A stretch of 64,000 bases of DNA, taken from positions 314,635 to 378,634 of IMG/VR virus record IMGVR_UViG_3300031133_000383; one strand, 5' to 3'. Under the pieces are notes generated by a model, which had not been told where the DNA came from, made no database searches, and was given only the letters and a program-made list of their open reading frames with translations. The first letter of the stretch is position 1, and the number at the start of each line of letters is the position of its first letter. This document shows positions 3,951-63,135 of the stretch, piece by piece. The position numbers were made by a program, and so were the translations under genes. Source of the stretch: a virus. Its lineage: Duplodnaviria > Heunggongvirae > Uroviricota > Caudoviricetes.

Positions 3951-4715
3951 TTGAGACGATCTAATTCAGACATACGGACAATAGGTCCTGAAAAATATTT
4001 TATCGAAGAAACATTGCAGGGTTTTACTTATGATAAAACACGAGAACTTCATATTTTATCACAACTTCTTGACATCGATAAAAGTTTTTTAATCCATGAC
4101 CGTTACTTTTGGCTGTTGGAAGATTTGGGGTTTCAAGAATTAGATGCTTATTATTTTGAGTATAGAACACCAGCAAAAGCACTCTTCTCAGCAGGAGGAA
4201 TTGAAATTCCTCGTTGTCAAAAACTTTTTGTAAAAACAATCAATAAGGAAGGAGATAAATTAGAATTATTGTTTAAAAGAGTAACTACTAGTAATAATAA
4301 ATACGGAAATCATTATTTTTATTATTTAACAATTAAAGGATATGTTCATTTTGATAATAGTATTATGAAGAAAGAAAATGATTCATTGACTTATTTTGAT
4401 GAAAATGGCCAAAAGTTAATTTCTGTCAAATTAGCATTTAATTCGGTTATTCATACCTATCAAAAATTTCCTAATTGTGATCCCATTTTTAGTGTTATAA
4501 AATCTGATCGCGATATTTATGTTGAGATGATTACTTATCATAAAGAAAATGAAATTAATAATGTTTTTTTTAATTGTTTTGGAAAGCAGTTAGATTATTC
4601 ACATCTATGTGAGTTAATTCCAGAAATTGAAAAAATTTCTAAAGGCGAATTATTGGGATGGATTACAAAATTATCCGACAGTAATAAAAAAATAATTGAA
4701 ATGTATATATCATAA
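3951..4715 (+). CDS. Hypothetical protein, C-terminal EM-motif family
   Basis: SD ggag then TTG start; ends LSDSNKKIIEMYIS. Confidence 0.8.
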   Translation: MRRSNSDIRTIGPEKYFIEETLQGFTYDKTRELHILSQLLDIDKSFLIHDRYFWLLEDLGFQELDAYYFEYRTPAKALFSAGGIEIPRCQKLFVKTINKEGDKLELLFKRVTTSNNKYGNHYFYYLTIKGYVHFDNSIMKKENDSLTYFDENGQKLISVKLAFNSVIHTYQKFPNCDPIFSVIKSDRDIYVEMITYHKENEINNVFFNCFGKQLDYSHLCELIPEIEKISKGELLGWITKLSDSNKKIIEMYIS

Positions 4716-4728
4716 TAGGAGATAACAC

Positions 4729-5154
4729 ATGATTATATGGGTTTTAAAATACATTGATAAAAAACAGGAACTAGGTCCTTTGGGTATGTGGGATTCAGCT
4801 TTGGATAGCATTGTGTCTGTTTTTTTCAAAAAAAGTATAAACGAATATTATAAGAAGAAATTGGAAACTATTAAAAATAATACTTTACCTCCACGTTTTA
4901 AAAAGGGTGATAAAGTCTTTTTGTTTTTAGAACACAGTGAAGATATTGAATGTTCAATTGATTCCACTTTCTTTGATTACTCAAATAAAATATATTTTTA
5001 TTCCATATTTGAAGTCAATAACCAAAGAAAACATATACGCTATCCAGAAATGTTGTTCTATTTCAAAGAAAAAGATAGGTTTACACAATCAGAAATATCT
5101 TTTGTTGAATTAATGGTCCAATTAAAACCTGCAAAAAAAACAATTGCTGATTAG
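4729..5154 (+). CDS. Hypothetical protein
   Basis: SD aggag; PRFKKGDKV segment suggests an SH3-like barrel; ends in TAG. Confidence 0.75.
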   Translation: MIIWVLKYIDKKQELGPLGMWDSALDSIVSVFFKKSINEYYKKKLETIKNNTLPPRFKKGDKVFLFLEHSEDIECSIDSTFFDYSNKIYFYSIFEVNNQRKHIRYPEMLFYFKEKDRFTQSEISFVELMVQLKPAKKTIAD

Positions 5155-5214
5155 TTGCTTTTCAGAAATACATTTCATATAATAGCTGCCAACCTAAAGG
5201 AGCTATACGTAGTA

Positions 5215-5508
5215 ATGAGTAAAATTTTTTCAAAATTGACTTTTTTGGTGATTGCATTATTGGTTATTATAGTTACAGTTTTAGATTTATGCCGATTTTC
5301 TCAGCTAGCCACTTCATCCTATGAAAATCCTTGGTTTTCCAATTCAATTTCTCAGCCGTACACTACTTTTAGGTTGAGTCTTGTATCAGAAGACTATAAA
5401 CGCGAATACTGGACTCAAAATTCGATTGGATCTGAACGTTTGAAAATTCGCGAAATTGCTGTTAATGATGTTGTGTTCTGGACCATTATTGAACGACATC
5501 CCATTTAA
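5215..5508 (+). CDS. Membrane-anchored hypothetical protein
   Basis: SD aaggag before ATG 5215; N-terminal TM LTFLVIALLVIIVTVL. Confidence 0.65.
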   Translation: MSKIFSKLTFLVIALLVIIVTVLDLCRFSQLATSSYENPWFSNSISQPYTTFRLSLVSEDYKREYWTQNSIGSERLKIREIAVNDVVFWTIIERHPI

Positions 5509-5517
5509 AAACAAAGA

Positions 5518-6012
5518 CTACTGCAATTCTTTCTTAGGATCTGCAGTGTTGTCTTGAATTTGTTCCAATCCCGGATTATACATCACATAATGAACTGCAT
5601 TGTCTTGACACTGGAAGTAGGCCATGTATCTTTCAGATTTGTCAGGAATTATATAAGCAAAAGCAGCACCTTTTTGCACACCTTCTGTTGCATTTTTATA
5701 ATTTTCTCTAAATTGAACATCCAGTAATCCTGCAATACTTTGACAAGCCGCTTCATCAATCTGTGGAAGACCAATAGCTTCTATCTTTCTAACTTGTTTT
5801 TCATCATTGAAATAAACTTGATAAGTTTGAAATATTTTTTCTATAGGTTTTGGTGGATTAACTTGAACAGGTTCTAGAACTTTTGGCGTATAATTTGTTG
5901 GATAAAGCGAAGATTTTTCTCCGATGGTTATTCCAAAAGGTGAGAAATCAGCAGCATGAACCGTTGTAATTGCTGTCATTAATAAACAAACTTTCATTAT
6001 GTTACGTATCAT
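5518..6012 (-). CDS. Secreted/periplasmic protein
   Basis: Start moved to ATG 6012 (SD aggt); signal peptide MIRNIMKVCLLMTAITTVHA-ADF. Confidence 0.7.
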   Translation of the reverse strand: MIRNIMKVCLLMTAITTVHAADFSPFGITIGEKSSLYPTNYTPKVLEPVQVNPPKPIEKIFQTYQVYFNDEKQVRKIEAIGLPQIDEAACQSIAGLLDVQFRENYKNATEGVQKGAAFAYIIPDKSERYMAYFQCQDNAVHYVMYNPGLEQIQDNTADPKKELQ

Positions 6013-6193
6013 GATTTTACCTATATTGATTTTCGTGTTTATTAGTATAGAACCTTTTTTGTCAAAGTCAAAATTAATAAAAGTTGACGAAATACTCAAT
6101 ATGGTATATTATTACACTGTTTTAGACCTATTTATTTTAAATTCCTTCCTTTGCACCAATTTCCATGGCTTTAATTAATTTAAGGGAAATCTA

Positions 6194-6961
6194 ATGTCTT
6201 ACTATGTTCTGACACCTTTATTGACTTATCTGGCTTATATTGTGTTCTATGTCAAAATTGATGAATTACACATTGATATGGTGTTGATTAGAGGCCATTT
6301 GTTTAAAGCTATCTCATTGGTAGTTACTTTTCTTTTTGTTGTAATTTTAAATCAACTGGTTTCCTATGTTTTATTTAAAAACATATCATTTAATCCAACC
6401 ATGGCTTTTATGTCAATCTATCTTGGTTTGATGTGTGTTGTTTTCAAAAAAATTGATCATGTCAAATTTGATCATCAGCAATTTCATAGAAACCTAAATG
6501 AATGCAAAAATACTTCGGACACTGGCTTAACGGATCACGACTTCAATGCTATTGTTGCTGCAATTAGAAAAAAACAAACGTTAACTCATATGCTTTTTAA
6601 TGCTTATACTAATATATTTTTTATTCAAGTTCATTCGAAATGGTTAAAGGTTTTATTTTTACATGGAACGGATTCTTCTAGAAATTTGTTAAATCATTTT
6701 TCAGTAACTTCATCATCAATTATCAATAAAAATAAAACATCCTTTTTCAAACGATTTATTGGGATGATGATGCTTGATAGGTTCAAATATTACTCTTACC
6801 CAGCAAATGGTTCTATACCAGAAACTATTTTAAGTGTCCATTTTCTTTTAACTCAACCATTGGCACCTGTAAAGCTTATTTATGAGATTGACAAAAAGTC
6901 TCTTCAAGATGATTTAACACCAGCAGATTACTCTTTGATTGAAATGCTTAGCATAAAATAA
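6194..6961 (+). CDS. Membrane protein, C-terminal EM-motif family
   Basis: Three N-terminal hydrophobic segments; ends LTPADYSLIEMLSIK. Confidence 0.8.
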   Translation: MSYYVLTPLLTYLAYIVFYVKIDELHIDMVLIRGHLFKAISLVVTFLFVVILNQLVSYVLFKNISFNPTMAFMSIYLGLMCVVFKKIDHVKFDHQQFHRNLNECKNTSDTGLTDHDFNAIVAAIRKKQTLTHMLFNAYTNIFFIQVHSKWLKVLFLHGTDSSRNLLNHFSVTSSSIINKNKTSFFKRFIGMMMLDRFKYYSYPANGSIPETILSVHFLLTQPLAPVKLIYEIDKKSLQDDLTPADYSLIEMLSIK

Positions 6962-7079
6962 CAAATCCATTTTTCTATTTGAAACTTTCAAGTATAATGT
7001 GTTTGAAAAGTCCTAAGCTTTATAGATGATATTGAAATTAATTATTCAATGATTAAAATTTAATTTCACCCTTTGAAAT

Positions 7080-8659
7080 CAATTAGAGACTTGGAAGCCT
7101 CGTCCTTCAGGGCGGGGAGGAATAGTCTCTCATGTCTTCTTTCAATTGGCAACTTATTGAATGTTGACTTTTATTTTTAGTCTCCTATAATATTTTCTAT
7201 TATTTTTTCAACTTTTTTATATGTTGTCTCAGGAGAAACATTTGAAGCGTAACACTAAAAAGAAAAATCCATTGATTGAGACTAGAGTCTGCCAAATGTG
7301 GCTTAATTCTCTTTCTTCTTTCGATCATGATTTTCTTTTTAAACTTTCTACTCATTCTTCTCTTATGTACAATTTTGCACTTTATCAAATTCGGCAAAAC
7401 TATTTTAAATCAAATTTATTGTCTTTTAAAGATAATTATCATTTATGTAAAAACAATGAACACTTTTCTATCTTATTGAACGATTGCTCACAGCAAGTCG
7501 TTCAACTTGCTCATCGTGATTTTAATTCATTTCTTGGATTGTTAAAAGCCAAAAAGAAAGGCACTTATACTAAAGAAGTGAAAATAGCTCGATATAAGAA
7601 AAAAAATAATGAAACTGTTTTGTCAAATATCGTTATTCAAGGTCGTAGTATACGAATAGATCATAAACAATCATCAAAACTAGATAATGTTAATATATTT
7701 AAATTCAATGCTTCCAAGGCTTTTAAATTACTTTATCCCAATACAAGTCATTCTTTTGAATTTCAAGTGCCAAAACATATTCAAACCATTAATGAAATAA
7801 GAATTATTCCACATGGAAAAGCTCCTGTTCAATTTAAACTCGAAGTTGTTTACAAAACAACTATCGAGACAAAAAAAGATGATAATGGTCAATATCTATC
7901 AATAGATCCGGGTTTAAATAATTTAGTAGGTTGTTTTAATTCTAAAAACGGACAGTCGTTTATTATTGATGGTAAATATATTAAATCTATCAATCACTTC
8001 TATAATAAAAAATCGTCTAAGTTACAAAGTAAAATCGATTTACGTAAAAATGAAAAATTAGAAACAAATGATCTAATTAAAAAGAAAAATAAATTAACAC
8101 ACAAAAGAAACAATAAAATTAATGATTATTTCCATCGTTCTACAAAGTTTATTGTTGATTATTGTGTAAAACACAATATCAACAAGATAATTGTTGGTGA
8201 AAATAAAGAACAGAAACAAGATATTAATATCGGTAAAATCAATAATCAAAATTTTGTATTTATTCCTCATGCTAAATTCAAAGATGTACTTGAATATAAG
8301 GCAAAAGCAAAAGGTATTGAAGTAGTAAGATGCGAAGAGTCTTACACTTCAAAAACAAGTTTCATTGACCTAGAACCAATGAAACACCAAGAGAGCTATC
8401 TTGGTAGAAGGACCAAAAGAGGAATGTTCAAAAGCAAAGAAGGAATATTGATAAATTCGGATATAAATGGAGCAGCAAATATACTAAGAAAGTATTTAGA
8501 AAGTAGTGGCAAATTTAAAGAATGGAGAGATCTTTATTTTAAAGAAGCTAGTAAGGGTATCGTAAACTACCCAAAGAAGCAAACCTTGATCAGTTTACTG
8601 ATAAAGTCAGGCTTCAACAAAACTAAAAAAGCTCCGTCCTTCAGGGCGGGGTAGTTTAC
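7080..8659 (+). mobile_element. Non-autonomous IS200/IS605-family (IS1341-like, TnpB-only) element
   Basis: Subterminal palindrome cgtccttcagggcgggg at both 7101-7117 and 8635-8651; right end ...gtagtttac; no tnpA; removing 7080-8659 rejoins a reading frame (cct ttg aaa t|ac aac aag). Confidence 0.85.
7221..8654 (+). CDS. tnpB: RNA-guided endonuclease TnpB
   Basis: MYNFALY wedge; RuvC-I SIDPGLNN; RuvC-II IIVGE; EESYTSK; RuvC-III NSDINGAANI. Confidence 0.93.
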   Translation: MLSQEKHLKRNTKKKNPLIETRVCQMWLNSLSSFDHDFLFKLSTHSSLMYNFALYQIRQNYFKSNLLSFKDNYHLCKNNEHFSILLNDCSQQVVQLAHRDFNSFLGLLKAKKKGTYTKEVKIARYKKKNNETVLSNIVIQGRSIRIDHKQSSKLDNVNIFKFNASKAFKLLYPNTSHSFEFQVPKHIQTINEIRIIPHGKAPVQFKLEVVYKTTIETKKDDNGQYLSIDPGLNNLVGCFNSKNGQSFIIDGKYIKSINHFYNKKSSKLQSKIDLRKNEKLETNDLIKKKNKLTHKRNNKINDYFHRSTKFIVDYCVKHNINKIIVGENKEQKQDINIGKINNQNFVFIPHAKFKDVLEYKAKAKGIEVVRCEESYTSKTSFIDLEPMKHQESYLGRRTKRGMFKSKEGILINSDINGAANILRKYLESSGKFKEWRDLYFKEASKGIVNYPKKQTLISLLIKSGFNKTKKAPSFRAG

Positions 8660-8819
8660 ACAACAAGACAATTCTAAGCAGTATTATTCATTTCAAAGAC
8701 AAAAAATTTTCTCATCATGTGTTAAAACAAATAAGACCCGATTTTGTTTTTTTTAATACAGCATTACAAGAAACATTGAGCGAGCAGGATCTTGATCTTA
8801 TTGATATAATTAAATATTG
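8660..8819 (+). pseudogene. 3' remnant of an EM-motif-family gene interrupted by the TnpB element
   Basis: Open frame NKTILSSIIHFKDKKF...LSEQDLDLIDIIKY* right after the element; the 5' part (about 7000-7079) carries in-frame stops. Confidence 0.6.
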
Positions 8820-8910
8820 ATTATTTACTTTTTTTTATTTAATGGTATTATTTGTACTAATTTTTAAAAACTCTCTGTTAATAGATAATTGTTTAAGGAA
8901 CTTTTATAAT

Positions 8911-9651
8911 ATGTCAAACAATAGCTGCCGGTTAATTTATGTAGACGGCCCTCCTGAGTTCTTTATTTCAGGTGTTACATCTACACCTGTTATTAGAACA
9001 GCGTCCACCACTTCTTCTAGTTTTCCTAGTATTGAAAATTTTGATGAGCGTAGAAAAGACTTGTCACTGTTTAAGCTTGAAGCAATGACACAAGAAGATT
9101 TCAATATATTACTGTTTTCAGATAAGTTCTTCTTATTAGATGTTTTTGATAAACAAAAGCTTTTGGTTTTGCTGGATAAAGCTGTCGCTGATTCAGGATT
9201 TTTTGACTTGAAAGTTGAAGTTTTTTTTGAAGCACACAATGATGTTTTTTTAATGGTTAGTAAACTTTTTTATACCTTGGATTCAAAACCTTATATATTT
9301 TCAGACAAAAAAAGCTCTTCGTATTTTGTTGTGGGTCGATTCGGTTATTTCGATTTTTCGAACTTGTCTGTTTACGATAATAGCAACCTTTGTTATAAAA
9401 AAACACTCTACCAGTTTGAAGAAAAGTTGTATACTCAACTATCGATTAATCATCCTGAAATGAATAAAATACTTCCCTTAGCTATAACATATGATGAGTT
9501 TGGTATAGTATATGTTAACTATTATTACAATGGAAAATTAATAGAACATGATATTTTAAAAAATATCAAATTTGATTTTGATGCTAGAAAAAGTTCTTTC
9601 GATTATTTTACACACAATGAAATCTGTACTTTAAAAATGTATATAGAATGA
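8911..9651 (+). CDS. Hypothetical protein, C-terminal EM-motif family
   Basis: SD aagga before ATG 8911; ends FTHNEICTLKMYIE. Confidence 0.8.
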   Translation: MSNNSCRLIYVDGPPEFFISGVTSTPVIRTASTTSSSFPSIENFDERRKDLSLFKLEAMTQEDFNILLFSDKFFLLDVFDKQKLLVLLDKAVADSGFFDLKVEVFFEAHNDVFLMVSKLFYTLDSKPYIFSDKKSSSYFVVGRFGYFDFSNLSVYDNSNLCYKKTLYQFEEKLYTQLSINHPEMNKILPLAITYDEFGIVYVNYYYNGKLIEHDILKNIKFDFDARKSSFDYFTHNEICTLKMYIE

Positions 9652-15642: not shown

Positions 15643-16440
15643 GTGCTTATAAAATTTAAAGATTTTGATACAGAAGCAACTTCTTTAACTTTATCTGATA
15701 AAAATCTAGCGAGTTTGCAATCATTGTTATTGTCAAAAATCAATTTGTTGAATAGAAATCTTGATATAACATCTGATATGATTGAAGCTTCTGTGTTTGT
15801 AATGGCTGATAGAACCAAATTTTATGTACCTAAAAATCATAAAGATTTTTTGAGCATTAATGTTAGGGTTCAATTTTTTGAAATTGTGTTGAACATGAAC
15901 CTTTTTGTTTATTTTGATGAGAAGGGAAAATTTCATCATTACGCTACTTCCTGTAATTTATCCAGCAGTTACTTCCTTGAAAAATTGAAGTTGGATCAAC
16001 TGGGGGTTAAGCATACAAATATTGAATTTAATCTAGATATTCCCAATCGTGATGAATATGGGCACTATAAGCTGATTAAAGTAGGCAATTTTAAATTTCC
16101 CAATCTGGAAATGCCTATTATTTCAATTGAATATTCTTTTAATAATAATCATGAAATCGACTGTAAATGCCTTAATTTGCAATCATCGAGCAGCGGTTCT
16201 AGTATGCCTGTTCATATTTTTGAAAAAATAGATACCGAAATCATGTTTATAAAATTTCTTGAATACGTCATAAAAGAAAGAGATGCATGTGATAAACAAT
16301 TTTTAGATGTTACCAAACTTGATTTCCAAAAATCAGAATGGATAAAAATAATTCATGAAAGTTTTTATAAAAATCTTATTGGTTATCATAGGCAAGAATT
16401 TTTGAACTATTTAACTGTTATTGAAATGTCTGGTTATTGA
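15643..16440 (+). CDS. Hypothetical protein, C-terminal EM-motif family
   Basis: SD aagga then GTG; ends FLNYLTVIEMSGY. Confidence 0.8.
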   Translation: MLIKFKDFDTEATSLTLSDKNLASLQSLLLSKINLLNRNLDITSDMIEASVFVMADRTKFYVPKNHKDFLSINVRVQFFEIVLNMNLFVYFDEKGKFHHYATSCNLSSSYFLEKLKLDQLGVKHTNIEFNLDIPNRDEYGHYKLIKVGNFKFPNLEMPIISIEYSFNNNHEIDCKCLNLQSSSSGSSMPVHIFEKIDTEIMFIKFLEYVIKERDACDKQFLDVTKLDFQKSEWIKIIHESFYKNLIGYHRQEFLNYLTVIEMSGY

Positions 16441-19257: not shown

Positions 19258-19331
19258 TTAGAGATTTTTTATCATGCTCTTGCTTCCATTAGAAATGGTA
19301 TTAGTTGCGATTAATAATTTTGGAGATAATG

Positions 19332-20165
19332 ATGTTTAATGTTGATGAAATTTTATTAACTGAGACAGTTAGTGATGCTGGTTTCTGTCAGTTGGATATT
19401 AAATCACCTAATGGATTGCATTATATTATTATTGATAATGTTCCAGACAATCAACACACTTATTTAAAACTTACTTATCATCATAATGTTGTTTTTGAAT
19501 TTCCGATTGATAAATTCAGAGAAGATTCGGTATTTGATACCACATATTTTAAAAATACTCAACATCATTACTTATTCAGAATGGATATAGAGTCATTAAA
19601 ATTATTTTTAGAAGACACTCAAAATTTGATTTATATTCCTTATTCTGTCGGTTTTGAACACTATTTGTTTATTGGTGCCATTTTGTATCAATTGGATTTT
19701 GCTTCCAATCAATTAAACTATACGACAAGTTCTTCATCTAATAATCAAAGATGGATATACACTTACAGAGAAATAAAAGAGAGTTCCATTGCTAGAATTG
19801 TTGACACTCATTCTATTGATAGGTATACCGTTGATAACTTTCCCAGACGATCACATTTTTACCACTATATGATTGTGGGTGATCATTTTCAATTACTAGG
19901 TGTTTTTAATGGTCATTTCCAAGATTTATTTTCGATACGCTATTCACCAAAAACATTAGAATTGCATCTTCATAGCTTTAGCAATGGTTATTCTTACCTC
20001 ACCAATCAAACAGCAGACGACATGAACCGCATCATGAAAAATGAGTTTTATGACTGGCTGGATTTTGATGGTACTCAGTTTATTAAGGCAATGTTAAAAG
20101 ATCTTGATTTTAAAAATATGGCATTTAAAGATGCTTTGACCATAATGGAAATGGCCGTCATTTGA
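19332..20165 (+). CDS. Hypothetical protein, C-terminal EM-motif family
   Basis: SD ggag; ends MAFKDALTIMEMAVI. Confidence 0.8.
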   Translation: MFNVDEILLTETVSDAGFCQLDIKSPNGLHYIIIDNVPDNQHTYLKLTYHHNVVFEFPIDKFREDSVFDTTYFKNTQHHYLFRMDIESLKLFLEDTQNLIYIPYSVGFEHYLFIGAILYQLDFASNQLNYTTSSSSNNQRWIYTYREIKESSIARIVDTHSIDRYTVDNFPRRSHFYHYMIVGDHFQLLGVFNGHFQDLFSIRYSPKTLELHLHSFSNGYSYLTNQTADDMNRIMKNEFYDWLDFDGTQFIKAMLKDLDFKNMAFKDALTIMEMAVI

Positions 20166-21730: not shown

Positions 21731-22375
21731 ATGAGTTTTTTAATTTATTCTCAAATTGAATCCCGTCTAGAACAGGTTTTCGCTTAATTGAATTCTAAAT
21801 TTGGCGTTGTTGTGATTAAACATTATATTAAGCCTCGTTCTGAACAAGCTGGGAAAATATATGAAGTCATTTCAAATTTGGGTACATTTGAAATTGTGCT
21901 CTATACCAATTATAGTAATGTAACCTTTAAGGAATTGATTGTTTGTGAAAATGGTCAATTAGTCAATTACTCATCGTCATCCATTCTTGATAGTGTTGTC
22001 AATCAAATCAATCAAAAACTTGATATCTTGAAAGCCGTTAGAGTCATTCCATTTGAAGAGTCTATCAGTCATTTCATGGATAATGTCAAAGTTCAAATCA
22101 AGATGAGACTAAACAAGCATCTTCATATTCGAAACCAATTTAGTGTTAGTGTCACTATTCGCAAAGAAGACTGCATTTTACTTGTGGGTAATGTAACTGA
22201 TACCATCTTGGTTGATCGGGGTTTAATTTTCTCTTTTAAGGAAGACGAATTATACATGGCTGATTCATGGCAGTACCTGAAAGAGTTCATTCATACCACT
22301 TACAACATACCCCTGAATCAAAAAGATGTGGATTATGCTGATTTAGGCTCTGTTATTGATATGGTTCATCTTTGA
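21731..22375 (+). pseudogene. EM-motif-family gene with a premature in-frame TAA at 21785-21787
   Basis: SD ggag plus ATG 21731 (MSFLIYSQIESRLEQVFA*) in frame with ORF 21788-22375, which ends LGSVIDMVHL. Confidence 0.65.
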
Positions 22376-29677: not shown

Positions 29678-30595
29678 ATGTTTAAACAATTCCAATGCCA
29701 TGAGTATGCTAATGAAATTTTAAATTTATTCAAACCTCTCTTTGACTATGAAGTTACCGACGAAAAGTGTAATCTTTATTATTTGAATAAGAACTATATC
29801 TATACTGCCAGTATAAATAATTTTTTTGATATTAAAAATATTTGTCTCAATATAAGATTTGATTCTAAAAGAGAAAAAGATCTTGCCTTAAATCCTAAAA
29901 TAAGACTAAAAATGTTGGAGGCTTCTCCTAGCATAATAAAAACAGATTATGATGAATTTGCAAAAATTATTGGTGGGTATTTGGACAAAAAATATCAAGC
30001 AGACTATGAAAATCTGGAAAAGGTAGTTGATGTTTTTATCAGAGCAGGTCTGAAATTAGGGTTTTTTGAAGAAGTAGACAACAAGGCATATGAAAACACT
30101 TGGGCATCATATATAGATTGTAAACCTAATCTAGGCTGCATTCATATTGGTGATTACTCGAAAAATATGTCAATCGTAACATTTAACAGAATTTTTCAGA
30201 AGGGCGGAACTCTTCGAAAAAAGCACTTCAAGAAATCTTATGTAGCAGTAAGTATGGAATACCTAGTTAACTCTAAAAATGAACTAAAGCCTTATTTTAA
30301 AATCAGTCTACCTTTTACAGATGAAAAAAAAATACACTACTACATGGCACTTGAAAGTCCAGATAAGCTTTATATTGTAGAAAAAGAAAAAGATATTTAT
30401 ATAAAATATATTGAAAAATTCAAAAGTATTACGCTGGATATTAACAAAATTGAAAAACATTTTGAAAAAATATTTAGAGCTAATATTGAGGATATTATTC
30501 ATTCTCTAGTGAGAATTGATAAAGATATATTATCAGATATGAGTATTCAGGAATTACAAGAACACTTTGTTCTTGTGGATATGATTAAAAATTAA
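29678..30595 (+). CDS. Hypothetical protein, C-terminal EM-motif family
   Basis: SD aggag; ends ELQEHFVLVDMIKN. Confidence 0.8.
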   Translation: MFKQFQCHEYANEILNLFKPLFDYEVTDEKCNLYYLNKNYIYTASINNFFDIKNICLNIRFDSKREKDLALNPKIRLKMLEASPSIIKTDYDEFAKIIGGYLDKKYQADYENLEKVVDVFIRAGLKLGFFEEVDNKAYENTWASYIDCKPNLGCIHIGDYSKNMSIVTFNRIFQKGGTLRKKHFKKSYVAVSMEYLVNSKNELKPYFKISLPFTDEKKIHYYMALESPDKLYIVEKEKDIYIKYIEKFKSITLDINKIEKHFEKIFRANIEDIIHSLVRIDKDILSDMSIQELQEHFVLVDMIKN

Positions 30596-31423: not shown

Positions 31424-31867
31424 ATGACTATCCTTTATTCCAAACGCCAGCAAAATTCCATTGATAAAGTCGTTGATTTTGCAAAAAACATTGAAGACAA
31501 CGGCTTCCAATATAAAATTGCAGCAGGTATTGTTTATAAAAACAAAATTATTACCATTGCCAACAATGTTAATAAAACGCATACCTTCCAGAAAAACTTT
31601 TCAAAAAATGAACAAGCTATTTTCTTGCATGCAGAAACAGCCGCTATTCATAAAGCGTTGAAAGTTTTGGGTAAGGAAAAACTGAAACAGGCTACTTTGA
31701 TTGTGGCTCGTATTGCCAATATTCAAACCAACCCAAAAAAGATGCACTATAGCCAAGAAATTGCCAATAGCAAGCCTTGCTCTGGCTGCGAGCATTGCAT
31801 CAATTCCTTTGGCATCAAAAATGTTATTTACAGCATGAATGATGGTTTTAAAATGCTTGAATTCTAA
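31424..31867 (+). CDS. Zn-dependent deaminase (cytidine/dCMP deaminase fold)
   Basis: LHAETAAI...SKPCSGC (HxE...PCxxC). Confidence 0.88.
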   Translation: MTILYSKRQQNSIDKVVDFAKNIEDNGFQYKIAAGIVYKNKIITIANNVNKTHTFQKNFSKNEQAIFLHAETAAIHKALKVLGKEKLKQATLIVARIANIQTNPKKMHYSQEIANSKPCSGCEHCINSFGIKNVIYSMNDGFKMLEF

Positions 31868-36382: not shown

Positions 36383-37054
36383 ATGCTCAAAAAGGTTAGC
36401 AGCTACTCCGAATTCATCAAATACCTTTTTGATGACAATGTACAAGTCAACTTTGAACTTATTGAAAACGAATTTCATTTGCCATCAAACAGAGATTCAG
36501 AGTTAATTCTAAGCCATTATCATATTGATAAGCCATCTGCTTTAAACAATATTCATCTATTGAAAAATGGTTTTGTTGATCATGAAGGATTCAGGATTTA
36601 TTTAATTTATTGTGAGGGATTGGTTTACTCTAAGGTTTTTAGTTATCTGGATGTTCATGTTGCTGCTAAATTCAGAGATCTTAATAGTCCTTGGAAAATT
36701 GTCTATGATTCATTATATTTTACATGGTTGAGTAAATCATTTCATAGACACTCAAAGCAAACCTATACGCATCCTGTTAAAATTGAACAACAGTATTCTC
36801 AATATACCCTTTATTTTGCACCACAAGAAAAATTTGCAGTATCAAGAGTCGTTGTGGATAGCAATTATAGATATATTGTTGATATTGAATTTTCAAAAAA
36901 CTATTCAACTGTTTTAAGACTGTCTGATTTGTCCTTATCTTATCCTGAGATTGCAAACCAACTCAGATTTAAAGTCCGTTCAGTTGATAAGTTTACAACA
37001 AACAATAAGCATTTTAGAGAGCATCTTAAAATTTTAGAAATGATTGCTCTTTGA
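36383..37054 (+). CDS. Hypothetical protein, C-terminal EM-motif family
   Basis: SD agggga; ends FREHLKILEMIAL. Confidence 0.8.
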   Translation: MLKKVSSYSEFIKYLFDDNVQVNFELIENEFHLPSNRDSELILSHYHIDKPSALNNIHLLKNGFVDHEGFRIYLIYCEGLVYSKVFSYLDVHVAAKFRDLNSPWKIVYDSLYFTWLSKSFHRHSKQTYTHPVKIEQQYSQYTLYFAPQEKFAVSRVVVDSNYRYIVDIEFSKNYSTVLRLSDLSLSYPEIANQLRFKVRSVDKFTTNNKHFREHLKILEMIAL

Positions 37055-37063: not shown

Positions 37064-37705
37064 ATGATTCCTATTACTGATTATGACTCTTTGTTTAAAA
37101 CACTTCTCTCCATTGAAGAAACTGGATATTTTATCACACCAATAGAAGTATTTTTAAAAAATGAAACAGTTACTAAAAATATATACTATACCTGTATTAT
37201 TGACAGTAATAGTTATGTAATATTCCAATTAACTAAAAATATAATAACCAAGAAATTTTTTTTCTGTACGGATTTTAAAGGCAGTCATCGTGACCACGAT
37301 GAACCTGCTGTTATTGAATATTCTATTCATGGCAATATTATTTTAAAAGAATGGTTTATTAAAGGTAGCCCAAATAGAAAAAATAATTTAAAACCTATTT
37401 GTATTGAATATAAATATAATAAAAAAAATGTACAACATGTTAACAATTCTGCTGATGAACTCAAAAATGCTGGTTTTGTTATTTTTAATTACTTGAAAAA
37501 AAATATTGGTGTTAGTTGCTCCCATATACTATATGATTTAGACAAATCAAAAGTTGTTGATATTTTTCTTTACAATAATGGTCAACCTATATCAATTGAC
37601 ACTTTATTGGAATCTTATCCCGCCATCAACGACCTCTCATTGTCTAATTGTTTTGATTTATCTACCTCTGATATTATTACTGTACTGGATATGATTTTTC
37701 AATAA
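37064..37705 (+). CDS. Hypothetical protein, C-terminal EM-motif family
   Basis: HRDHDEPAVIEY...EWFIKG unit; ends DIITVLDMIFQ. Confidence 0.8.
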   Translation: MIPITDYDSLFKTLLSIEETGYFITPIEVFLKNETVTKNIYYTCIIDSNSYVIFQLTKNIITKKFFFCTDFKGSHRDHDEPAVIEYSIHGNIILKEWFIKGSPNRKNNLKPICIEYKYNKKNVQHVNNSADELKNAGFVIFNYLKKNIGVSCSHILYDLDKSKVVDIFLYNNGQPISIDTLLESYPAINDLSLSNCFDLSTSDIITVLDMIFQ

Positions 37706-39639: not shown

Positions 39640-40026
39640 TTGATGACTCAGATTCCACAATCGCAAGTTGTTATGGTAGATTTAGTAAACTCTACTACTG
39701 ATAAGTTTGCAAAACTTATTGATGACAAAGCTATCGGTACAACATTTTCTTGGATTGAATTTCGCGACACAACGTTACTGAAAATTATCGAATTTTCATG
39801 TGGCTTTCTGAACTATTCGGATAAAGAACTTTATTTGAAAACCTTCAATAGTCGTATGGCTGCTAATGGGTATTTACTCAAAGCAGTTAATTCACTTGAA
39901 GATAAAGTAGAAGCTTGGCATGAAGGTGATGGACATTTACAAGAACTGCATGAATACCTTTCACTGACATGGCAAGATTATAATCATTTTGTTCATGGTA
40001 CACCTGTGTATATTAAAAATAAATAA
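39640..40026 (+). CDS. Hypothetical protein
   Basis: SD ggag; C-terminal VEAWHEGD...LHEYLSLTWQDY. Confidence 0.7.
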   Translation: MMTQIPQSQVVMVDLVNSTTDKFAKLIDDKAIGTTFSWIEFRDTTLLKIIEFSCGFLNYSDKELYLKTFNSRMAANGYLLKAVNSLEDKVEAWHEGDGHLQELHEYLSLTWQDYNHFVHGTPVYIKNK

Positions 40027-40093
40027 TTCGTCTATTTTATCAGTAAATTTCGTTTTTAAAAAAATAAGTCATAATAAAATTAGGAATTATACG

Positions 40094-40723
40094 ATGAATA
40101 CCAATACAGAAGAATCAATTTTTTTTAAAAAAATGTTTATGAATTTTGCAAGTAAACATAATATAACAGTTGAACGCTATTGCTCAGTCAAATTGTTAAG
40201 CTTTTATAATCATAATTTTGATCCTGTCATGCTTTATGATGTTGGTGTTGATGAAGTAGCTCCCCTTGTATTAAAACCTTTTCGAGGTTTCAAAATAAAG
40301 AAATTAGTTAATGAACTTACACAATATTTATCAAAATGTTCAAATAACTATCTAGATACTTTTTTGGACAAGGATTTTTTTACTTCATATATAATTTATA
40401 ATACTCAAAGTATTTTTTTGAATAAAGATTATACCAGTGTTCATGATATTGCTTATTATCAACTAGAACTTATCAATAATAAATGTTCAACTAATTTTTT
40501 AGTTAATTTGCATACAAAGCCAGTCAAGGCTACCTACTACGAAACGCCAGAAGATACTGTATTAGATAAATATTTGGTAATCGATGTCTATTATAAAGAT
40601 ATAGAATCTTTATTAAATCCTTTTCTTGATTATTATTCGACTGCCATATGTAAGATGCTTGAAATACCTTTAACTCCTATTAACAAAGAGTTGTTGACAG
40701 TATTGAAAATGAAAACAATTTAA
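40094..40723 (+). CDS. Hypothetical protein, C-terminal EM-motif family
   Basis: SD agga before ATG 40094; ends INKELLTVLKMKTI. Confidence 0.8.
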   Translation: MNTNTEESIFFKKMFMNFASKHNITVERYCSVKLLSFYNHNFDPVMLYDVGVDEVAPLVLKPFRGFKIKKLVNELTQYLSKCSNNYLDTFLDKDFFTSYIIYNTQSIFLNKDYTSVHDIAYYQLELINNKCSTNFLVNLHTKPVKATYYETPEDTVLDKYLVIDVYYKDIESLLNPFLDYYSTAICKMLEIPLTPINKELLTVLKMKTI

Positions 40724-44664: not shown

Positions 44665-45654
44665 TTAAATTTTGTATCCATATAACTTTTTTCTCTCATT
44701 CCTTTGTACATCTTTAACCATTACGTTAAATAATTTTGCTGTATAATATGCATCATTTCCTGCATTGTGTAAGTTTTTTGCAATTATCATATGGTTTTCC
44801 AACAATGTCTTAAGTTTAAGCGAATCATGTTCACCTTCTTTTTTTAAATGATGACGATGTACAATTTGTGTATCAAATACCTTATGTTGACTGTAATCAA
44901 TCTTATTTCTTTCAAGAAAAGCCAATTCTGTTGAATGTTCATGCACAATTATAGCCGCTGTCTTTAATAGTGCAATTTCTATACAATTTTTAAGTTCATC
45001 ACTGGTAACTGTTTGTGAAATTCCAAAGTTGAAAGACTGCTGTAGTTTTGTTTTATTTTCGGATATTTTATCTATATGTTCTTGTACAATATAATGGTAT
45101 GATTCCATTTTTCCGTCTTTGAAAAAAGTCAATCCAGCTTCTCTTATATGCTTAATATTGAATTTATCTATCACGCCTGAATAATATTCAAAATCAATTG
45201 CTACTGCATAAGTGTTACTTAAATCAAAATTTTTAACTTCTCCATAGGTTTTAGTACGTTCCAACATTTCTACTTTATCCAATTCTTTCTGAGCCTTATA
45301 GGCTTTAAAAGCAGGCGTTTCTCTAGCAGTAAGTAAAGCCAATTTTAAATCTTCTATTGTATTGACAGGATATGCAACTATATCCGCTTCGCCAGTACGT
45401 GCTGCTTTCAAAAAATCATCTGTGATTTTAAAGTTCTTGTTTTTCATATACCAACATAGTTTTATCTTATCCAACTGATCATCAGAAAAAACCTTAGATA
45501 GTTTTTTATTACTTTGTATATAGATTTCTTTGAATTCAAAATGATTAAATAAATATTCCAAACCTGATATATGTGATAGTAACTTTCTGTTTTCTCTTTC
45601 TTCCAGTTGTTGCATCAACTTATTTTTTATTATATTAATATCATAATAATTCAT
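44665..45654 (-). CDS. DEDDh-type 3'-5' exonuclease domain protein
   Basis: ExoI VAIDFEY, FDTQ, ExoIII LHNAGNDAYYT; ends KKLYGYKI. Confidence 0.82.
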   Translation of the reverse strand: MNYYDINIIKNKLMQQLEERENRKLLSHISGLEYLFNHFEFKEIYIQSNKKLSKVFSDDQLDKIKLCWYMKNKNFKITDDFLKAARTGEADIVAYPVNTIEDLKLALLTARETPAFKAYKAQKELDKVEMLERTKTYGEVKNFDLSNTYAVAIDFEYYSGVIDKFNIKHIREAGLTFFKDGKMESYHYIVQEHIDKISENKTKLQQSFNFGISQTVTSDELKNCIEIALLKTAAIIVHEHSTELAFLERNKIDYSQHKVFDTQIVHRHHLKKEGEHDSLKLKTLLENHMIIAKNLHNAGNDAYYTAKLFNVMVKDVQRNERKKLYGYKI

Positions 45655-55090: not shown

Positions 55091-55091
55091 T

Positions 55092-56564: not shown

Positions 56565-57200
56565 ATGGTCAAGAAAAATCATCCTCTCTTTGATTACCTA
56601 AAATCTGCTAAAATATTCACAGTCACTATGATGGTTTTTAGTTTTGCATTGCTTTACAATGCAATGAATACTCAGGTTAAAACAGATATTACATTTTCTA
56701 TTTTCATCTCTTTTTCATCTATTTGCCTTTGGGTCATGTGTATTATCACATCAAGGATACAGTCAATTCACACATTTTATCATTGGTCGAGTTTGCTGAA
56801 CTATACTCTATCATTGGCAATAGTTATTTATTATTTCATATGGTCTAAAAATTATCCAATTGCGGTTTTTGGCTTTTTTATTGCACAAGTTTATGTATTG
56901 ATATTATTGTCTCAGATCTATAATTTCTTTATTTTAAATCATCATGAATTTTCAGAATTACGCTTATTGAACAATGGCGAAAATCCTTTTAATTCACCTA
57001 TGAATGTTGCATTAAGCCTTTCAACTAAATTTTCGTTCTTTACTGCAAATGGGATTGTAAAAATTGGTTATGGTGATTTGTATTTTAACAATAAGAAATT
57101 TGATATGTATCATGTTCAACACTACTTTGAAAAAAATGGCCTTACTATCATGACAGTAACAAATGATGATTTTTTGGTTATGGAAATGCTAGACCACTGA
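56565..57200 (+). CDS. 4-TM membrane protein, C-terminal EM-motif family
   Basis: SD aaggtg; ends VTNDDFLVMEMLDH. Confidence 0.8.
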   Translation: MVKKNHPLFDYLKSAKIFTVTMMVFSFALLYNAMNTQVKTDITFSIFISFSSICLWVMCIITSRIQSIHTFYHWSSLLNYTLSLAIVIYYFIWSKNYPIAVFGFFIAQVYVLILLSQIYNFFILNHHEFSELRLLNNGENPFNSPMNVALSLSTKFSFFTANGIVKIGYGDLYFNNKKFDMYHVQHYFEKNGLTIMTVTNDDFLVMEMLDH

Positions 57201-59034: not shown

Positions 59035-59535
59035 ATGAGCGAAAAGCCTACAAAAATCATCCCCTTCATTCCTCACTATAAACGTGGAAACAATGAAGTA
59101 GTTTTAGAAACGGAATCTGATTTTTATGACCGTCTTGGCAATAAGGCTAGGGTTACTAAAGTCGTTTATCGTGACAACAAAGGTAAATTTCACGAAGAAA
59201 CTATTCGTGTCAAATGGGAACAGCTAATTGACATCAAAAAGACGGTTCCTGAGAAAGTTCATTTGGTTCGGGCCTATATCAGTTTGATGGTGTGCAGTAA
59301 TGGCTTGTTTTTTTATACTACTTTAGCCATGAGTAATGGTGTTGTATCAACTCCAAAATGTTCAAAAGAACTCTATAAGGCTTTGTATGATGTTTTTTAT
59401 TTTGCCAATATGTTTGGTATCGAACCTGATATCTATGAACCCTCTGAGCATGTTTCTGCTGCTGAGATTGCAGCGGCTTACGAAGAAATTAGCCTTCTTG
59501 TTGAAAGCAAAAAAAATCGAAAATCTGACATGTGA
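59035..59535 (+). CDS. Hypothetical protein
   Basis: 166-aa ORF after a promoter. Confidence 0.7.
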   Translation: MSEKPTKIIPFIPHYKRGNNEVVLETESDFYDRLGNKARVTKVVYRDNKGKFHEETIRVKWEQLIDIKKTVPEKVHLVRAYISLMVCSNGLFFYTTLAMSNGVVSTPKCSKELYKALYDVFYFANMFGIEPDIYEPSEHVSAAEIAAAYEEISLLVESKKNRKSDM

Positions 59536-59921
59536 TTGATATGCTAATCTTCTTTCCTGTTCTTATTTTGGTATTGAATTGGCCTTTATATTTTATAGGT
59601 CTAATGGATATCTATACATTTCAAGATCTTTTTAAGTTTTTTAGTTATATGATGATGATAAGTATAGGTTTGAACATTTTTTATACTTTTTTGTCAATAT
59701 TTTATGTATTTAGAATTCGCAATTTGAGCAATAAATATCATATTGTTCCATGGCTAGTTTGTTTGAATAGTTTAATTGCTTTTAAATTTATAGCATATTA
59801 TGGTTATTTGAATTGGCTTCCAACTTTTTTGATTTGGTGTATGGTTACAATAACATTTTGCTTATTATCTTTTAAAATAATAGTGAAAAACCATCATAGA
59901 AAAATACAATCTTTTGATTGA
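59532..59921 (+). CDS. Membrane protein
   Basis: Four hydrophobic segments; 4-nt overlap with the previous gene. Confidence 0.7.
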   Translation: MIDMLIFFPVLILVLNWPLYFIGLMDIYTFQDLFKFFSYMMMISIGLNIFYTFLSIFYVFRIRNLSNKYHIVPWLVCLNSLIAFKFIAYYGYLNWLPTFLIWCMVTITFCLLSFKIIVKNHHRKIQSFD

Positions 59922-59985
59922 TTTTTGTCTGTCTTCAGGCTATAATATCTCCTATTAAAATCAAATTCACAAAATAGAGGTTAAC

Positions 59986-60222
59986 ATGATTAAGTCATTA
60001 AAAGAGTATGCATCTGTTGCTCGCCTGTGGGTCATTGAATATGAAAAATCTATTTTAGAATTGGGGATCACACATACTCTTGGAGGTACGTTTACTTCAA
60101 AAGAAGATTTATATTCTGCTATTGAAAGCCAGCTTAAAACTATTTTGAACAGTAAGGAACTTGAAGAAGATATTTCTTTTGAGTCTGCTCTTTTGATTCT
60201 TAAAGGTCAGAATGTAGCATAA
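59986..60222 (+). CDS. Hypothetical protein
   Basis: SD gaggt; terminator at 60237-60260. Confidence 0.7.
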   Translation: MIKSLKEYASVARLWVIEYEKSILELGITHTLGGTFTSKEDLYSAIESQLKTILNSKELEEDISFESALLILKGQNVA

Positions 60223-60505
60223 TATTTTTTACTTTAAAGCCATCTTCGGGTGGCTTTTTTGATCAAGTTAAATTGATTTCCATTATTGTTAAAAACTCGT
60301 TTAAATCAAAAATATTTCGACAGTCATTTGTATTTAAAAAAGCTACAACATCTTCTTTTCCTTATTTTTCTAAATTTACCTTAATATTTTCTCTATCTTA
60401 CTCTCTTTAGCTTTTTTATCAATAGCTTTACAATATGACATTTTTTATTTTTCTTTAAATAGTTGTTGACTGTAAACCATCATTTTGATAATATAGTCAC
60501 ATCAA

Positions 60506-60589
60506 GCCCGAGTGGTGGAATGGTAGACGCGGTGGATTCAAAATCCTCTGTCGAAAGACGTGCCGGTTCGAGTCCGGCTTCGGGCACCA
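60506..60589 (+). tRNA. tRNA-Leu(CAA)
   Basis: Class II cloverleaf, gtgga-TT CAA AA-tcctc, A-CCA. Confidence 0.93.
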
Positions 60590-60599
60590 AATTTATATT

Positions 60600-60753
60600 T
60601 TAACTGTTGAAAAGAGATGCTGTGCTAATACCAGTGTGGCAGTAGAGGTGGTGACCTATTACTTTATTGCATGATGTTAGCAGGGTTATGAAAGTCACTA
60701 TAATAGTTAAGGGTTGGTAGTAATGCATTTTCAATCTCTCTATGCATTATGAC
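60600..60753 (+). ncRNA. Double-pseudoknot structured RNA, copy 1
   Basis: P1 ttaactgtt/aatagttaa; P2 tgctaata/tgttagca; P3 gcagtagag/ctttattgc; PK ggtgac/gtcact; PK agaga/tctct in the loop of taatgcat/atgcatta. Confidence 0.75.
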
Positions 60754-60770
60754 TTTTATTGTTGGTAAGG

Positions 60771-60944
60771 TTTCAATTGTCGAAAAGAGATGCAGTGGTA
60801 ACACCCAAGCGGTGATAGAATTGGTGACCTATTATTTTATCACACGATGTTGCCATTAGTCAGGAAAGTCACTATAACAATTGAGACAGCAGTAGATGTG
60901 TTGTGTGCTTTAAATCTCTTTGTACACTGCATGCTGGACTACTG
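60771..60944 (+). ncRNA. Double-pseudoknot structured RNA, copy 2
   Basis: P1 tttcaattgt/acaattgaga; P2 tggtaaca/tgttgcca; P3 gtgatagaa/ttttatcac; same two pseudoknots; stems covary with copy 1. Confidence 0.75.
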
Positions 60945-60977
60945 ATTTGTAACGCAGGTTTTTATCCCTGCATTCTA

Positions 60978-61064
60978 TTTTGTTTAGGCTTGTAGCTCAG
61001 ATGGTAGAGCGGAGGGCAGAAACCCTCGCGTCGGAGATTCGATTTCTTCCTCGCCTAGACAAAA
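60978..61064 (+). ncRNA. tRNA-like RNA / pseudo-tRNA
   Basis: Canonical D and T arms; anticodon arm gaggg-CAGAAA-ccctc (6-nt loop); acceptor stem has a 2x2 mismatch, extends to ttttgtttaggc/gcctagacaaaa, no CCA. Confidence 0.7.
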
Positions 61065-61220
61065 TTTTTTATTTTTAATCAATCAAAGATGACAGCTATT
61101 TGAACTCTGGATTGGTGTAATGATTTTTTTCAACAACCTTGAGCTTGATGTTTTCAAAAAAGAAATCATGGTTAAAAATCTTGACTTCTTTAGCATCTGA
61201 TGCTAATATAACCACACAAA

Positions 61221-61304
61221 GCCCGAGTGGTGAAATGGTAGACGCGGGGGACTTAAAATCCCCTTCCTTACGGAGTGCCGGTTCGAGTCCGGCCTCGGGC
61301 ACCA
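61221..61304 (+). tRNA. tRNA-Leu(UAA)
   Basis: Class II cloverleaf, gggga-CT TAA AA-tcccc, A-CCA. Confidence 0.95.
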
Positions 61305-61312
61305 AATTTTAT

Positions 61313-61386
61313 TTCTCGTTAGTTTAACGGTAGAACAGCGGCCTCTAAAACCGTGTATGCGGGTTCGAATCCCGCACGAGGAACCA
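61313..61386 (+). tRNA. Amber suppressor tRNA (CUA)
   Basis: Acceptor ttctcgt/acgagga, D arm gttt/gaac, anticodon arm gcggc-CT CTA AA-accgt, T arm gcggg-TTCGAAT-cccgc, A-CCA. Confidence 0.88.
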
Positions 61387-61393
61387 GTATCAT

Positions 61394-61470
61394 GGGACTT
61401 TAGCTCAGTTGGTTAGAGCGTCCGACTCATAATCGGCAGGTCGTAGGTTCAAGTCCTACAAGTCCCACCA
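61394..61470 (+). tRNA. tRNA(CAU), probably Ile2; identical to 20502-20578
   Basis: 77-nt exact copy. Confidence 0.93.
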
Positions 61471-61547
61471 AATTATCAAAAATTGTCTATATATTGTATA
61501 TTTCCTTTAATCAGGACAATTTGTTGCTACATCCTCTGAGGTGCCAA

Positions 61548-61898
61548 ATGAATTCAATTGATGTGAATAAAATAACCCCATCTTGGTATGTCAAAGATAA
61601 TATTCTTTTTTTAGATATTCATTATTGGAAACGTAACGAAACAACAGAAGGCCACTGTGGAAGCACTCTAATTTGGAGGAAGACTATCATAAATGGCAAT
61701 CTGATCGCCGCTTATAATTCCATAGTAAAATCAGCTAAAAAATATTTTGATTTACCCTACCTTAAAAAAATCAAGGTGGATAAGTCACCTGCAGTAACGC
61801 CTATTGATGAAAATCATGACTTTGATTTCTATCATCCTCTAGTAGTTTTTTTTATCGGGGTGCTTGTCGGTATGATTTTTATTAAAATGTTGAATTAA
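61548..61898 (+). CDS. Hypothetical protein with C-terminal TM
   Basis: SD gaggt before MNSIDV; C-terminal hydrophobic helix. Confidence 0.7.
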   Translation: MNSIDVNKITPSWYVKDNILFLDIHYWKRNETTEGHCGSTLIWRKTIINGNLIAAYNSIVKSAKKYFDLPYLKKIKVDKSPAVTPIDENHDFDFYHPLVVFFIGVLVGMIFIKMLN

Positions 61899-61932
61899 CT
61901 TTTTAATTTCGATACAGTATGGATATCTATTA

Positions 61933-63135
61933 ATGACAAACCGCCTTGAACTACTGTTAGCGAATACGCCTATTGAATCTGTTTTTGATCATTCAGATTT
62001 TAGTGTTGTTACAGAAGCTGCTAATGTAGGCGAAGTCAGTTTCAATCATTTTGATTTTTTAACTGATAAATCGTATACCGCTACTACCTTTTTCACTGGT
62101 CTTGTTCAATCTCTTTCTTTTATCTTTCCAAATTTTACGATTTCCGAAATTAAAAGTTTAAGTTCTACGGCTTACTTTTACTTTGACATTTTCCCATTTC
62201 CTCAGATTATGAATGATATGCATGCTTCTAATTTCAAAGTGCATGTACTTAATCGAAAAGATACAGTTCGTGTAAATTTCAACCTCTTTACTCTTTCGTT
62301 TCGTTTTAAAAAATGGATTTTTAGTTTTAGTGATACGTTCAAAAAAGAACAGGAAATGGAATCCATTTCTTTTGTTAATATTCATACTGCTATGCTGAGA
62401 TCTTTTAAAGAATTGATTTCAGATGTCATGATTAAGCCACCTCTATTATTTAATAATGCAATCTTCAAGAAAATTATTGAAAATAAATCTAACTTTTCCT
62501 TTAACTCCATGCGTTATGAAGATGTTTTTACACACGAAACTGATGTCAATTTTTCTAGGCATATTAAAAAAATTCAACCGTTGATGATTGTAGGCGATCT
62601 TCGCTCTATCAAGGGTGTTGCTCAACCAGCTATGTTGTATGTAAAAGGTGATATTCGCGTAACTCGTAATGTTTTGAATGTTGCTAAATCAAGTGAAACA
62701 CAAGTATATTTTCGTTATGAATCCCTTGATTTTATAGACTCGCTATTTTCAGTGACTTTTTCTTCTGAGCAACTATCTTCTTTACGAAAGATACTTAATT
62801 TGATTAACAAGATTAATATTTGTTTTGAAAAAGAAGCGTATTCAGGTATTGAAGTCATTCGTATTAACAATTCCAAAAAAGCTATTTATAATTTGATTAA
62901 AGAAAAAAATGCATTTCATATTACATTTGGTAGAACTAGTATTCATATCAATCGTTATATTGAATGCTCTATAATTATTAATAATTCATACCAATCTATC
63001 AAAGTTGAAAGTTTTGAAGAAGCTTTTAATTGTATTTATCAGGCATTCGCTGTACACGTTGCTAATTATTTTAATATTGATCAAAGCCTAGTGAATGATG
63101 ACTATATCAACTTATTGGAAATGGTTCGTCATTGA
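61933..63135 (+). CDS. Hypothetical protein, C-terminal EM-motif family
   Basis: 400 aa; ends VNDDYINLLEMVRH. Confidence 0.8.
   Translation: MTNRLELLLANTPIESVFDHSDFSVVTEAANVGEVSFNHFDFLTDKSYTATTFFTGLVQSLSFIFPNFTISEIKSLSSTAYFYFDIFPFPQIMNDMHASNFKVHVLNRKDTVRVNFNLFTLSFRFKKWIFSFSDTFKKEQEMESISFVNIHTAMLRSFKELISDVMIKPPLLFNNAIFKKIIENKSNFSFNSMRYEDVFTHETDVNFSRHIKKIQPLMIVGDLRSIKGVAQPAMLYVKGDIRVTRNVLNVAKSSETQVYFRYESLDFIDSLFSVTFSSEQLSSLRKILNLINKINICFEKEAYSGIEVIRINNSKKAIYNLIKEKNAFHITFGRTSIHINRYIECSIIINNSYQSIKVESFEEAFNCIYQAFAVHVANYFNIDQSLVNDDYINLLEMVRH

Follow-up and report, generated by a model that had tools for sequence, protein, structure and literature searches.

Poxvirus ankyrin proteins carry a C-terminal PRANC/F-box-like helix motif that docks all members to one host machine. 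Among phages, an 11-residue peptide at the C-terminus of the RB69 DNA polymerase, gp43, binds a hydrophobic crevice of the gp45 sliding clamp (PMC2705854), and Bacillus phage G carries about 35 copies of a zinc ribbon, a lineage-specific expansion in the jumbo phages (PMC7824862). Here we describe a large set of proteins that share a C-terminal motif, called the tail below, in the viral-collection record IMGVR_UViG_3300031133_000383. The window is a stretch of 64,000 nucleotides that corresponds to bases 314635-378634 of this 437,043-bp record, and the analysis covers the whole record. The tail is present in at least 78 copies, or 16-19% of the genes. We read these proteins, tentatively and at somewhat less than an even chance, as one clade-specific, duplicated and diverged family in which variable bodies are joined to a constant C-terminal docking handle, and we favour a docking handle over a structural keystone and over a portable tag or degron.

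The original prediction named twelve open reading frames (ORFs) in the window that end in two hydrophobic residues, a charged residue, Met and three further residues, and all twelve are present on the plus strand with the C-termini that were quoted. Met is fourth from the end (position -4) in 11 of the 12, the exception being the ORF at 6194, where it stands at -5. With the pattern written strictly as [LIVMFTC][LIVMFTC][EDK]M-x-x-x-stop, the four-residue core occurs 148 times in the 533 ORFs of at least 100 amino acids in the record (approximately 498 genes of this size). Of these occurrences, 49 fall exactly at positions -7 to -4 where 0.63 were expected, a ~77-fold enrichment of the C-terminal position over internal positions. 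Met is found at -4 in 103 ORFs against 14 expected, and at each of the other positions from -1 to -11 in 9-18 ORFs.

Because hidden Markov models (HMMs) of the tail were too weak (a 45-residue model recovered 44 members and a 70-residue model recovered 19), we scored the last 15 residues with a position matrix, whose threshold was taken from all internal windows and allowed 0.2 false positives. The matrix identified 78 members, ~16% of the genes of the record, and Met at -4 and the protein end are fixed in 77 of them. A further 15 tail-like ORFs depart from the pattern at -4 (Ile or Leu) or at -5 (another residue), and the family probably amounts to ~95 copies in the record. Twelve members was therefore an undercount of the 78-95 in the record, and the proposed enrichment was borne out, as the tail lies far beyond chance when compared with the internal-window null. 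The claim that all members are on the plus strand holds within the window and fails genome-wide, where 12 of the 78 are on the minus strand. The density of members is 2-12 per 40 kb throughout the record, and 21 pairs are adjacent where ~11 were expected, forming tandem arrays.

Conservation of the tail spans about -14 to -1. Positions -14, -9, -7, -6, -3 and -1 are hydrophobic (-1 in 82% of members and -3 in 76%), position -11 is Asp or Glu, and at position -5 the charge may be of either sign (E, K or D), which would suit a residue that faces solvent next to a buried Met. Pro and Gly together make up 0-3% of residues from -14 to -1 and are at normal levels upstream, where a check for linkers found no Pro/Gly-rich or low-hydrophobicity stretch. 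The helix-cap segment that had been proposed, [LIFVM][ST]xx[DE], occurs in 27 of the 78 members and in 20 of 395 non-members (35% vs 5%, a 7-fold difference). The conserved unit is a terminal helix of 13-15 residues with a capping box, and many members have an extra short helix before the cap with the sequence L-N-hydrophobic-[S/T]. An aromatic-rich Y-F-x-x-x-F motif 40-70 residues before the end is also enriched, yet it occurs in only 12 of the 78 members.

Both the genome (31% GC) and the tail codons are AT-rich, as they would be if the pattern were a nucleic-acid signal near the stop codons or a chance product of base composition. However, the information in the tail lies in codon positions 1 and 2, whereas the third positions are uninformative. 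Synonymous codons are used freely, with the Leu/Ile/Val and Glu/Lys codons of the tail at genome frequencies, and no conservation was seen downstream of the stops of the tail genes. The codon-position analysis and the enrichment over internal positions refute a nucleic-acid signal or chance, to which we assign almost no probability. The tail is selected at the protein level.

The tail is also conserved in relatives outside the record. Subfamily A, which includes the window ORF at 29678, has 39 outside representatives in a library of 1.84 billion proteins. The C-terminal end is included in 38 of these, and ~36 of the 38 keep Met at -4 and stop three residues later. A search with a second subfamily, B, returned 18 proteins (17 from outside the record), all of which keep the tail. 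Seven other metagenomic records contain the same tails in tandem arrays, with 2-13 members per 9-21 kb. Contigs of 1.07-1.86 Mb carry orthologues of subfamily B with 50-76% identity, and a viral-collection record of 179 kb matches part of a 1.86-Mb contig from the same sample at 100% identity. Relatives of the window proteins at 37064 and 56565 were not found in a collection of 5.8 billion proteins. Single-member searches of a phage collection and of species genomes gave no match, and neither did a scan of viral contigs with a subfamily A protein. The only links to cultured phages that we found are to the Xanthomonas jumbo phages XacN1 and Xoo-sp13, through the largest protein, of 778 amino acids and unknown function (L012:11520-13853, minus strand), which is 45% identical to proteins of both. 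By this one protein XacN1 is the nearest cultured phage, and a 50-kb sample of it contained no tail motif.

Outside the tail, the members resemble neither known proteins nor, for the most part, each other. The earlier observation that no recognisable enzyme carries the motif extends to the 94 tail proteins scanned against Pfam (49 strict and 45 further members): none has a credible domain, no match was better than an E value of 0.0015 and none passed a curated cut-off. For comparison, at least ~15 proteins in a set of 100 size-matched non-members together matched 25 Pfam families, and 85 families were matched by the 120 largest non-members. Ten window members searched against PHROGs gave marginal matches only, to families of unknown function, and profiles of subfamilies A and B did not match any solved structure by sequence. 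We found no description of the tail family in the curated families, solved structures and literature that were searched. Within the record, BLAST and iterated HMM searches grouped the members into subfamilies of 8, 7, 4 and 3 proteins plus pairs, leaving the rest as singletons, and the iterated models draw in distant members along their full length. No relation was found by hhalign among eight subfamily alignments or between the deeper A3 and A6 profiles. The dissimilarity of the proteins that was originally noted was upheld, as similarity between the bodies of different subfamilies was not detectable by BLAST, HMM or hhalign. When windows of one family are ordered by conservation, the one that holds the tail comes 9th of 294 in A and 2nd of 249 in B.

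The members include both soluble and multi-spanning membrane proteins, as was originally noted, with 3-4 transmembrane helices in several of them. Five or six are membrane proteins, including the window ORFs at 56565 and 6194, and these have strongly hydrophobic segments in the first ~125 residues followed by ~90 soluble residues and the tail. In the ORF at 56565, the hydrophobic segments lie at residues ~20-125 and ~90 soluble residues follow.

Dissimilar bodies with membrane proteins among them, in a large set dispersed through the whole record, are what might be expected of a portable tag or degron on unrelated proteins that would package them into virions, import them into a phage compartment, secrete them or time their proteolysis, and the lock of the tail to the free C-terminus resembles known C-terminal signals. 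However, no carrier has a recognisable domain, whereas sets of cargo proteins normally include enzymes. The tail is ordered in the structure models described below and lacks a linker, and integral membrane proteins are unlikely as cargo of a capsid or compartment. The cargo peptides of encapsulins and microcompartments offer the nearest likeness, being short terminal helices on otherwise unrelated proteins that are read by one shell protein. Those peptides, in contrast, are attached through flexible linkers to recognisable enzymes, while the tails have no linker, are ordered, and sit on proteins without enzyme domains, some of them in the membrane. The HK97 shell profile PF05065 had no match in the record, which is possibly incomplete, and BMC domains were not searched. 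The tails share hydrophobic residues at -1 and -3 with class II PDZ ligands (hydrophobic-x-hydrophobic-COOH), but PDZ ligands bind as an extended strand whereas the tails are modelled as a helix, and no match to PDZ (PF13180) or S41 protease (PF03572) profiles was obtained in the record, although a reader may be supplied by the host. The record also lacks capsid and terminase matches, although it may be a fragment. We consider a portable tag or degron unlikely, and neither virion loading, nor import, nor a degron is specifically indicated by the evidence.

AlphaFold models were obtained for two subfamilies. Subfamily A consists of the window ORF at 29678 and seven paralogs (8 in the record), and its model, from an alignment of 37 rows, has a predicted local distance difference test (pLDDT) score of 92 and a predicted template modelling (pTM) score of 0.90. 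In this model a small helix-plus-sheet domain comes first, then one helix, a meander of eight strands and three helices at the C-terminus, and the tail forms the helix at residues 290-304. The model of subfamily B, from 23 rows (six paralogs plus orthologues), has a pLDDT of 87.5 and a pTM of 0.81. It consists of helices, an eight-stranded meander and C-terminal helices, the last of which is 32 residues long and carries the tail. The tail helix is predicted with a pLDDT of 80-95 and the C-terminal 50 residues lie above 85 in both models, and the tails are modelled as helical to the last or second-last residue. As modelled, the tail is an ordered part of both proteins and not a floppy appendage.

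Comparison of the two models with solved and viral structures gave no convincing match (best Z scores 6.4 and 5.3). The A model matched cystatin-like folds and the C-terminal 'double wing' of T4 MotA at Z 6.4-5.0. Its N-terminal 200 residues aligned with the DNA-binding double wing of T4 MotA (Z 6.0, root-mean-square deviation 3.7, 91 residues) and with the double-wing domain of E. coli YdcD (Z 5.3), while its second half aligned weakly with frataxin-like helix-sheet-helix sandwiches (Z 4.3-4.6). The B model matched open beta-sheets at Z 5.3 or less. Because these scores are too weak, we did not assign a function or a fold to either subfamily. A complex prediction with a full-length A member and a B member, run without controls, scored 0.00 and is evidence neither way.

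The models have a bearing on whether the members are one family. The absence of foreign domains, the tandem arrays, the similar sizes and the helix-meander-helix plan together point to one family and not to a pasted-on tag. The address tag of the original prediction is partly supported, as a position-locked element that is selected at the protein level on dissimilar bodies, and not as a loose amphipathic tag on unrelated cargo. The hydrophobic positions -9, -7, -6, -4, -3 and -1 encircle most of the helix and do not form one face, the tail is confidently placed in two models, and a flexible linker is absent.

These same features would suit a structural keystone, in which all members share one helix/beta-meander/helix fold, the terminal helix occupies a groove in the sheet, and folding alone requires the Met and the end of the chain. 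The high scores of both models, the missing linker, the wide hydrophobic arc around the helix, the lack of foreign domains in all 94 members and the weak frataxin-like alignment of the second half of A all agree with such a role. However, a core helix normally co-evolves with its packing surface, and here the rest of the protein has diverged while Met at -4 and the end are invariant. The ~90 soluble residues of the membrane members are too few for the modelled fold, and in A the frataxin-like core is already complete at the helix at residues 255-278, which suggests that the tail helix is an addition to it. We regard a purely structural role as somewhat less probable than a docking handle.

Another candidate is a sliding-clamp-binding motif, in which case the tail would plug the hydrophobic crevice of a clamp. 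The end of RB69 gp43, SLFDMFDF-stop, matches the strict pattern residue by residue, so that L-F-D-M-F-D-F-COOH shows the residue pattern of the tails at an equal distance from the C-terminus. Bacterial clamp motifs such as QADMF also include D-M-F. However, T4 gp43 ends in SLDFLFG, and the pattern is absent from both T4 gp43 and T4 gp55. Neither a gp45-type nor a beta clamp was recognised, nor were PolB and Pol III alpha, as the clamp and polymerase profiles PF02916, PF00712, PF00136 and PF07733 had no match in the 437-kb record, possibly a fragment. By Pfam, no replication or transcription domains are present among the 94 tail carriers, some of which are membrane proteins, and ~80 clamp clients would be unprecedented. 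RB69 gp43 is also a single replication enzyme that uses its peptide as a flexible tether, whereas the tails belong to a family and are modelled as ordered helices. Membership of the clamp-binding class is very improbable, and the RB69 peptide may serve instead as an analogy for how the tail could work.

In the docking-handle reading, the family would have grown through duplication and very fast divergence. The body of the soluble members would be a helix plus a beta-meander, which the membrane subgroup would replace with 3-4 transmembrane helices. The constant module would be a short helix, the capping box and the 13-15-residue terminal helix, ending in hydrophobic-hydrophobic-[E/K/D]-Met-hydrophobic-x-hydrophobic-COOH. 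We propose that the bodies diverged so as to bind a range of targets, which are probably molecules of the host or of competitors, and that the tail has been retained since every member must fit the same putative partner. A single hydrophobic pocket of this partner would receive Met and the hydrophobic residues that flank it, with the carboxylate three residues past Met acting as a register mark. A fixed Met at -4 and a fixed chain end on bodies that have diverged beyond detection are the pattern that an external common constraint would produce, and from this we reasonably infer docking to a hub protein.

Several observations weigh against a docking handle. A partner was not found, and no clamp, PDZ protein or S41 protease was recognised in the record. 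In the two subfamilies that were modelled, the tail is ordered in the AlphaFold monomer and so could simply be a structural element. The final two turns of the helix are nearly ringed by hydrophobic residues, and burial within the protein itself would explain this as well as burial in a partner. Against common descent of all bodies, the comparisons of body profiles were negative and the membrane bodies differ.

In a bolder version, the tail would be a genuine signal for C-terminal recognition, of a kind not described for phages, whose reader also senses the free carboxylate, as with PTS1, HbYX and the clamp-binding peptides. It would tether ~80-95 fast-evolving soluble and membrane proteins to one hub of a giant, possibly megabase-scale, phage-like element. 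Such a set would constitute a programmable repertoire of host-takeover adaptors. We put this forward as a speculative possibility that is somewhat less probable than a docking handle as such. The architecture of the tail family resembles that of the poxvirus PRANC proteins, with many paralogs in one large viral genome, fast-diverging bodies and a conserved C-terminal helix. The likeness is one of architecture only, and no F-box, PRANC or ankyrin Pfam matches at an E value of 0.01 or better were obtained in the 94 tail proteins. In its copy number, the family is comparable to the zinc-ribbon expansion of phage G, where one small protein family likewise reaches tens of copies in a giant phage genome. 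The tail family is two to three times larger, has no recognisable domain, and is defined only by its stop-anchored helix.

Within the window, the first member (3951..4715, 254 amino acids) ends in KIIEMYIS and has a weak paralog at genome position 124444. It is followed by the membrane protein at 6194..6961 (255 amino acids), which has a hydrophobic N-terminal half and ends in SLIEMLSIK, a one-residue extension that places Met at -5. Further members lie at 15643..16440 (265 amino acids, TVIEMSGY), 21788..22375 (195 amino acids, SVIDMVHL), 29678..30595 (305 amino acids, VLVDMIKN, the subfamily A member), 36383..37054 (223 amino acids, KILEMIAL) and 37064..37705 (213 amino acids, TVLDMIFQ). The integral membrane protein at 56565..57200 (211 amino acids) ends in LVMEMLDH, and the longest member of the window, at 61933..63135 (400 amino acids), ends in NLLEMVRH. 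Three members have alternative upstream starts that leave the tails unaffected. These are 8842..9651 (269 amino acids, or 246 from the ATG at 8911; CTLKMYIE), 19305..20165 (286 amino acids, or 277 from 19332; TIMEMAVI) and 39989..40723 (244 amino acids, or 209 from 40094; TVLKMKTI). All are on the plus strand.

The remnant with the ending DLIDIIKY that had been reported beside these members is real. It is an open frame of ~70 codons at 8602..8817 on the plus strand that ends in DLDLIDIIKY-stop, with Ile at -4, and it is probably a truncated tail-bearing gene. The frame abuts a TnpB gene at 7221-8654 (OrfB_IS605 and a Cas12f-like TNB domain), one of four in the record, which suggests an insertion that truncated the tail gene. 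A 147-amino-acid ORF at window positions 31424-31867 ends in GFKMLEF and has Met at -4 but otherwise fits the tail poorly. It was not counted as a member, and it is possibly a degenerate or short one.

Shine-Dalgarno-like sites lie upstream of 54% of the genes of the record, and by this measure the tail-bearing element is a prokaryotic system. A promoter scan gave no signal above the shuffled expectation. The relatives on contigs of 1.07-1.86 Mb, the lack of matches to terminase, HK97 capsid, family-B or Pol III polymerases and clamps in the record, and the absence of any ORF over 796 amino acids, the longest found, suggest that we may be looking at part of a far larger, megabase-scale prokaryotic-virus-like genome, despite a completeness estimate of 98%.

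The record carries Hsp70, tRNA synthetases, GatA/B, several peptidases, RNA ligases and TnpB. The Hsp70 is full-length (E 8.6e-254; L012:2807-4705, plus strand). Other large proteins are a 736-amino-acid protein with a prokaryotic RING finger (L003:366-2573, plus strand) and a 632-amino-acid protein with the ADP-ribosyltransferase domain of polyvalent proteins (L002:3029-4924, plus strand). Genes for nicotinamide adenine dinucleotide synthesis, MFS transporters and a chemoreceptor signalling domain are also encoded. A second expanded family comprises nine paralogs with a DEDDh_C domain (Pol III epsilon-like exonuclease), such as the one at window positions 44665-45654 on the minus strand, and another family has four members, including that at 2732-3823 on the minus strand. 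Within a cluster of tRNA genes, a tRNA with the anticodon CTA lies at window positions 61313-61386 (an amber suppressor, called 'Pyl' by ARAGORN). Stop-codon recoding was considered and rejected: reading TAG, TGA or TAA as sense merges no genes, and TAG lengthens none. Some tail genes terminate correctly on TAG.

Viral multigene families whose members share a constant motif at one terminus are of a known kind, and what is new here is the size of the family, its orphan status and its stop-anchored signature. About one-sixth of the genes in this element and its relatives belong to one family that is absent from databases. If the tail is only structural, it would still represent extreme divergence of bodies around a fixed terminal element, and it would still be a practical marker for this clade in metagenomes. 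If the tail is a docking handle, the identity of its partner would explain the function of ~80-95 orphan genes at once and would show how elements of this sort arrange a large repertoire of effectors.

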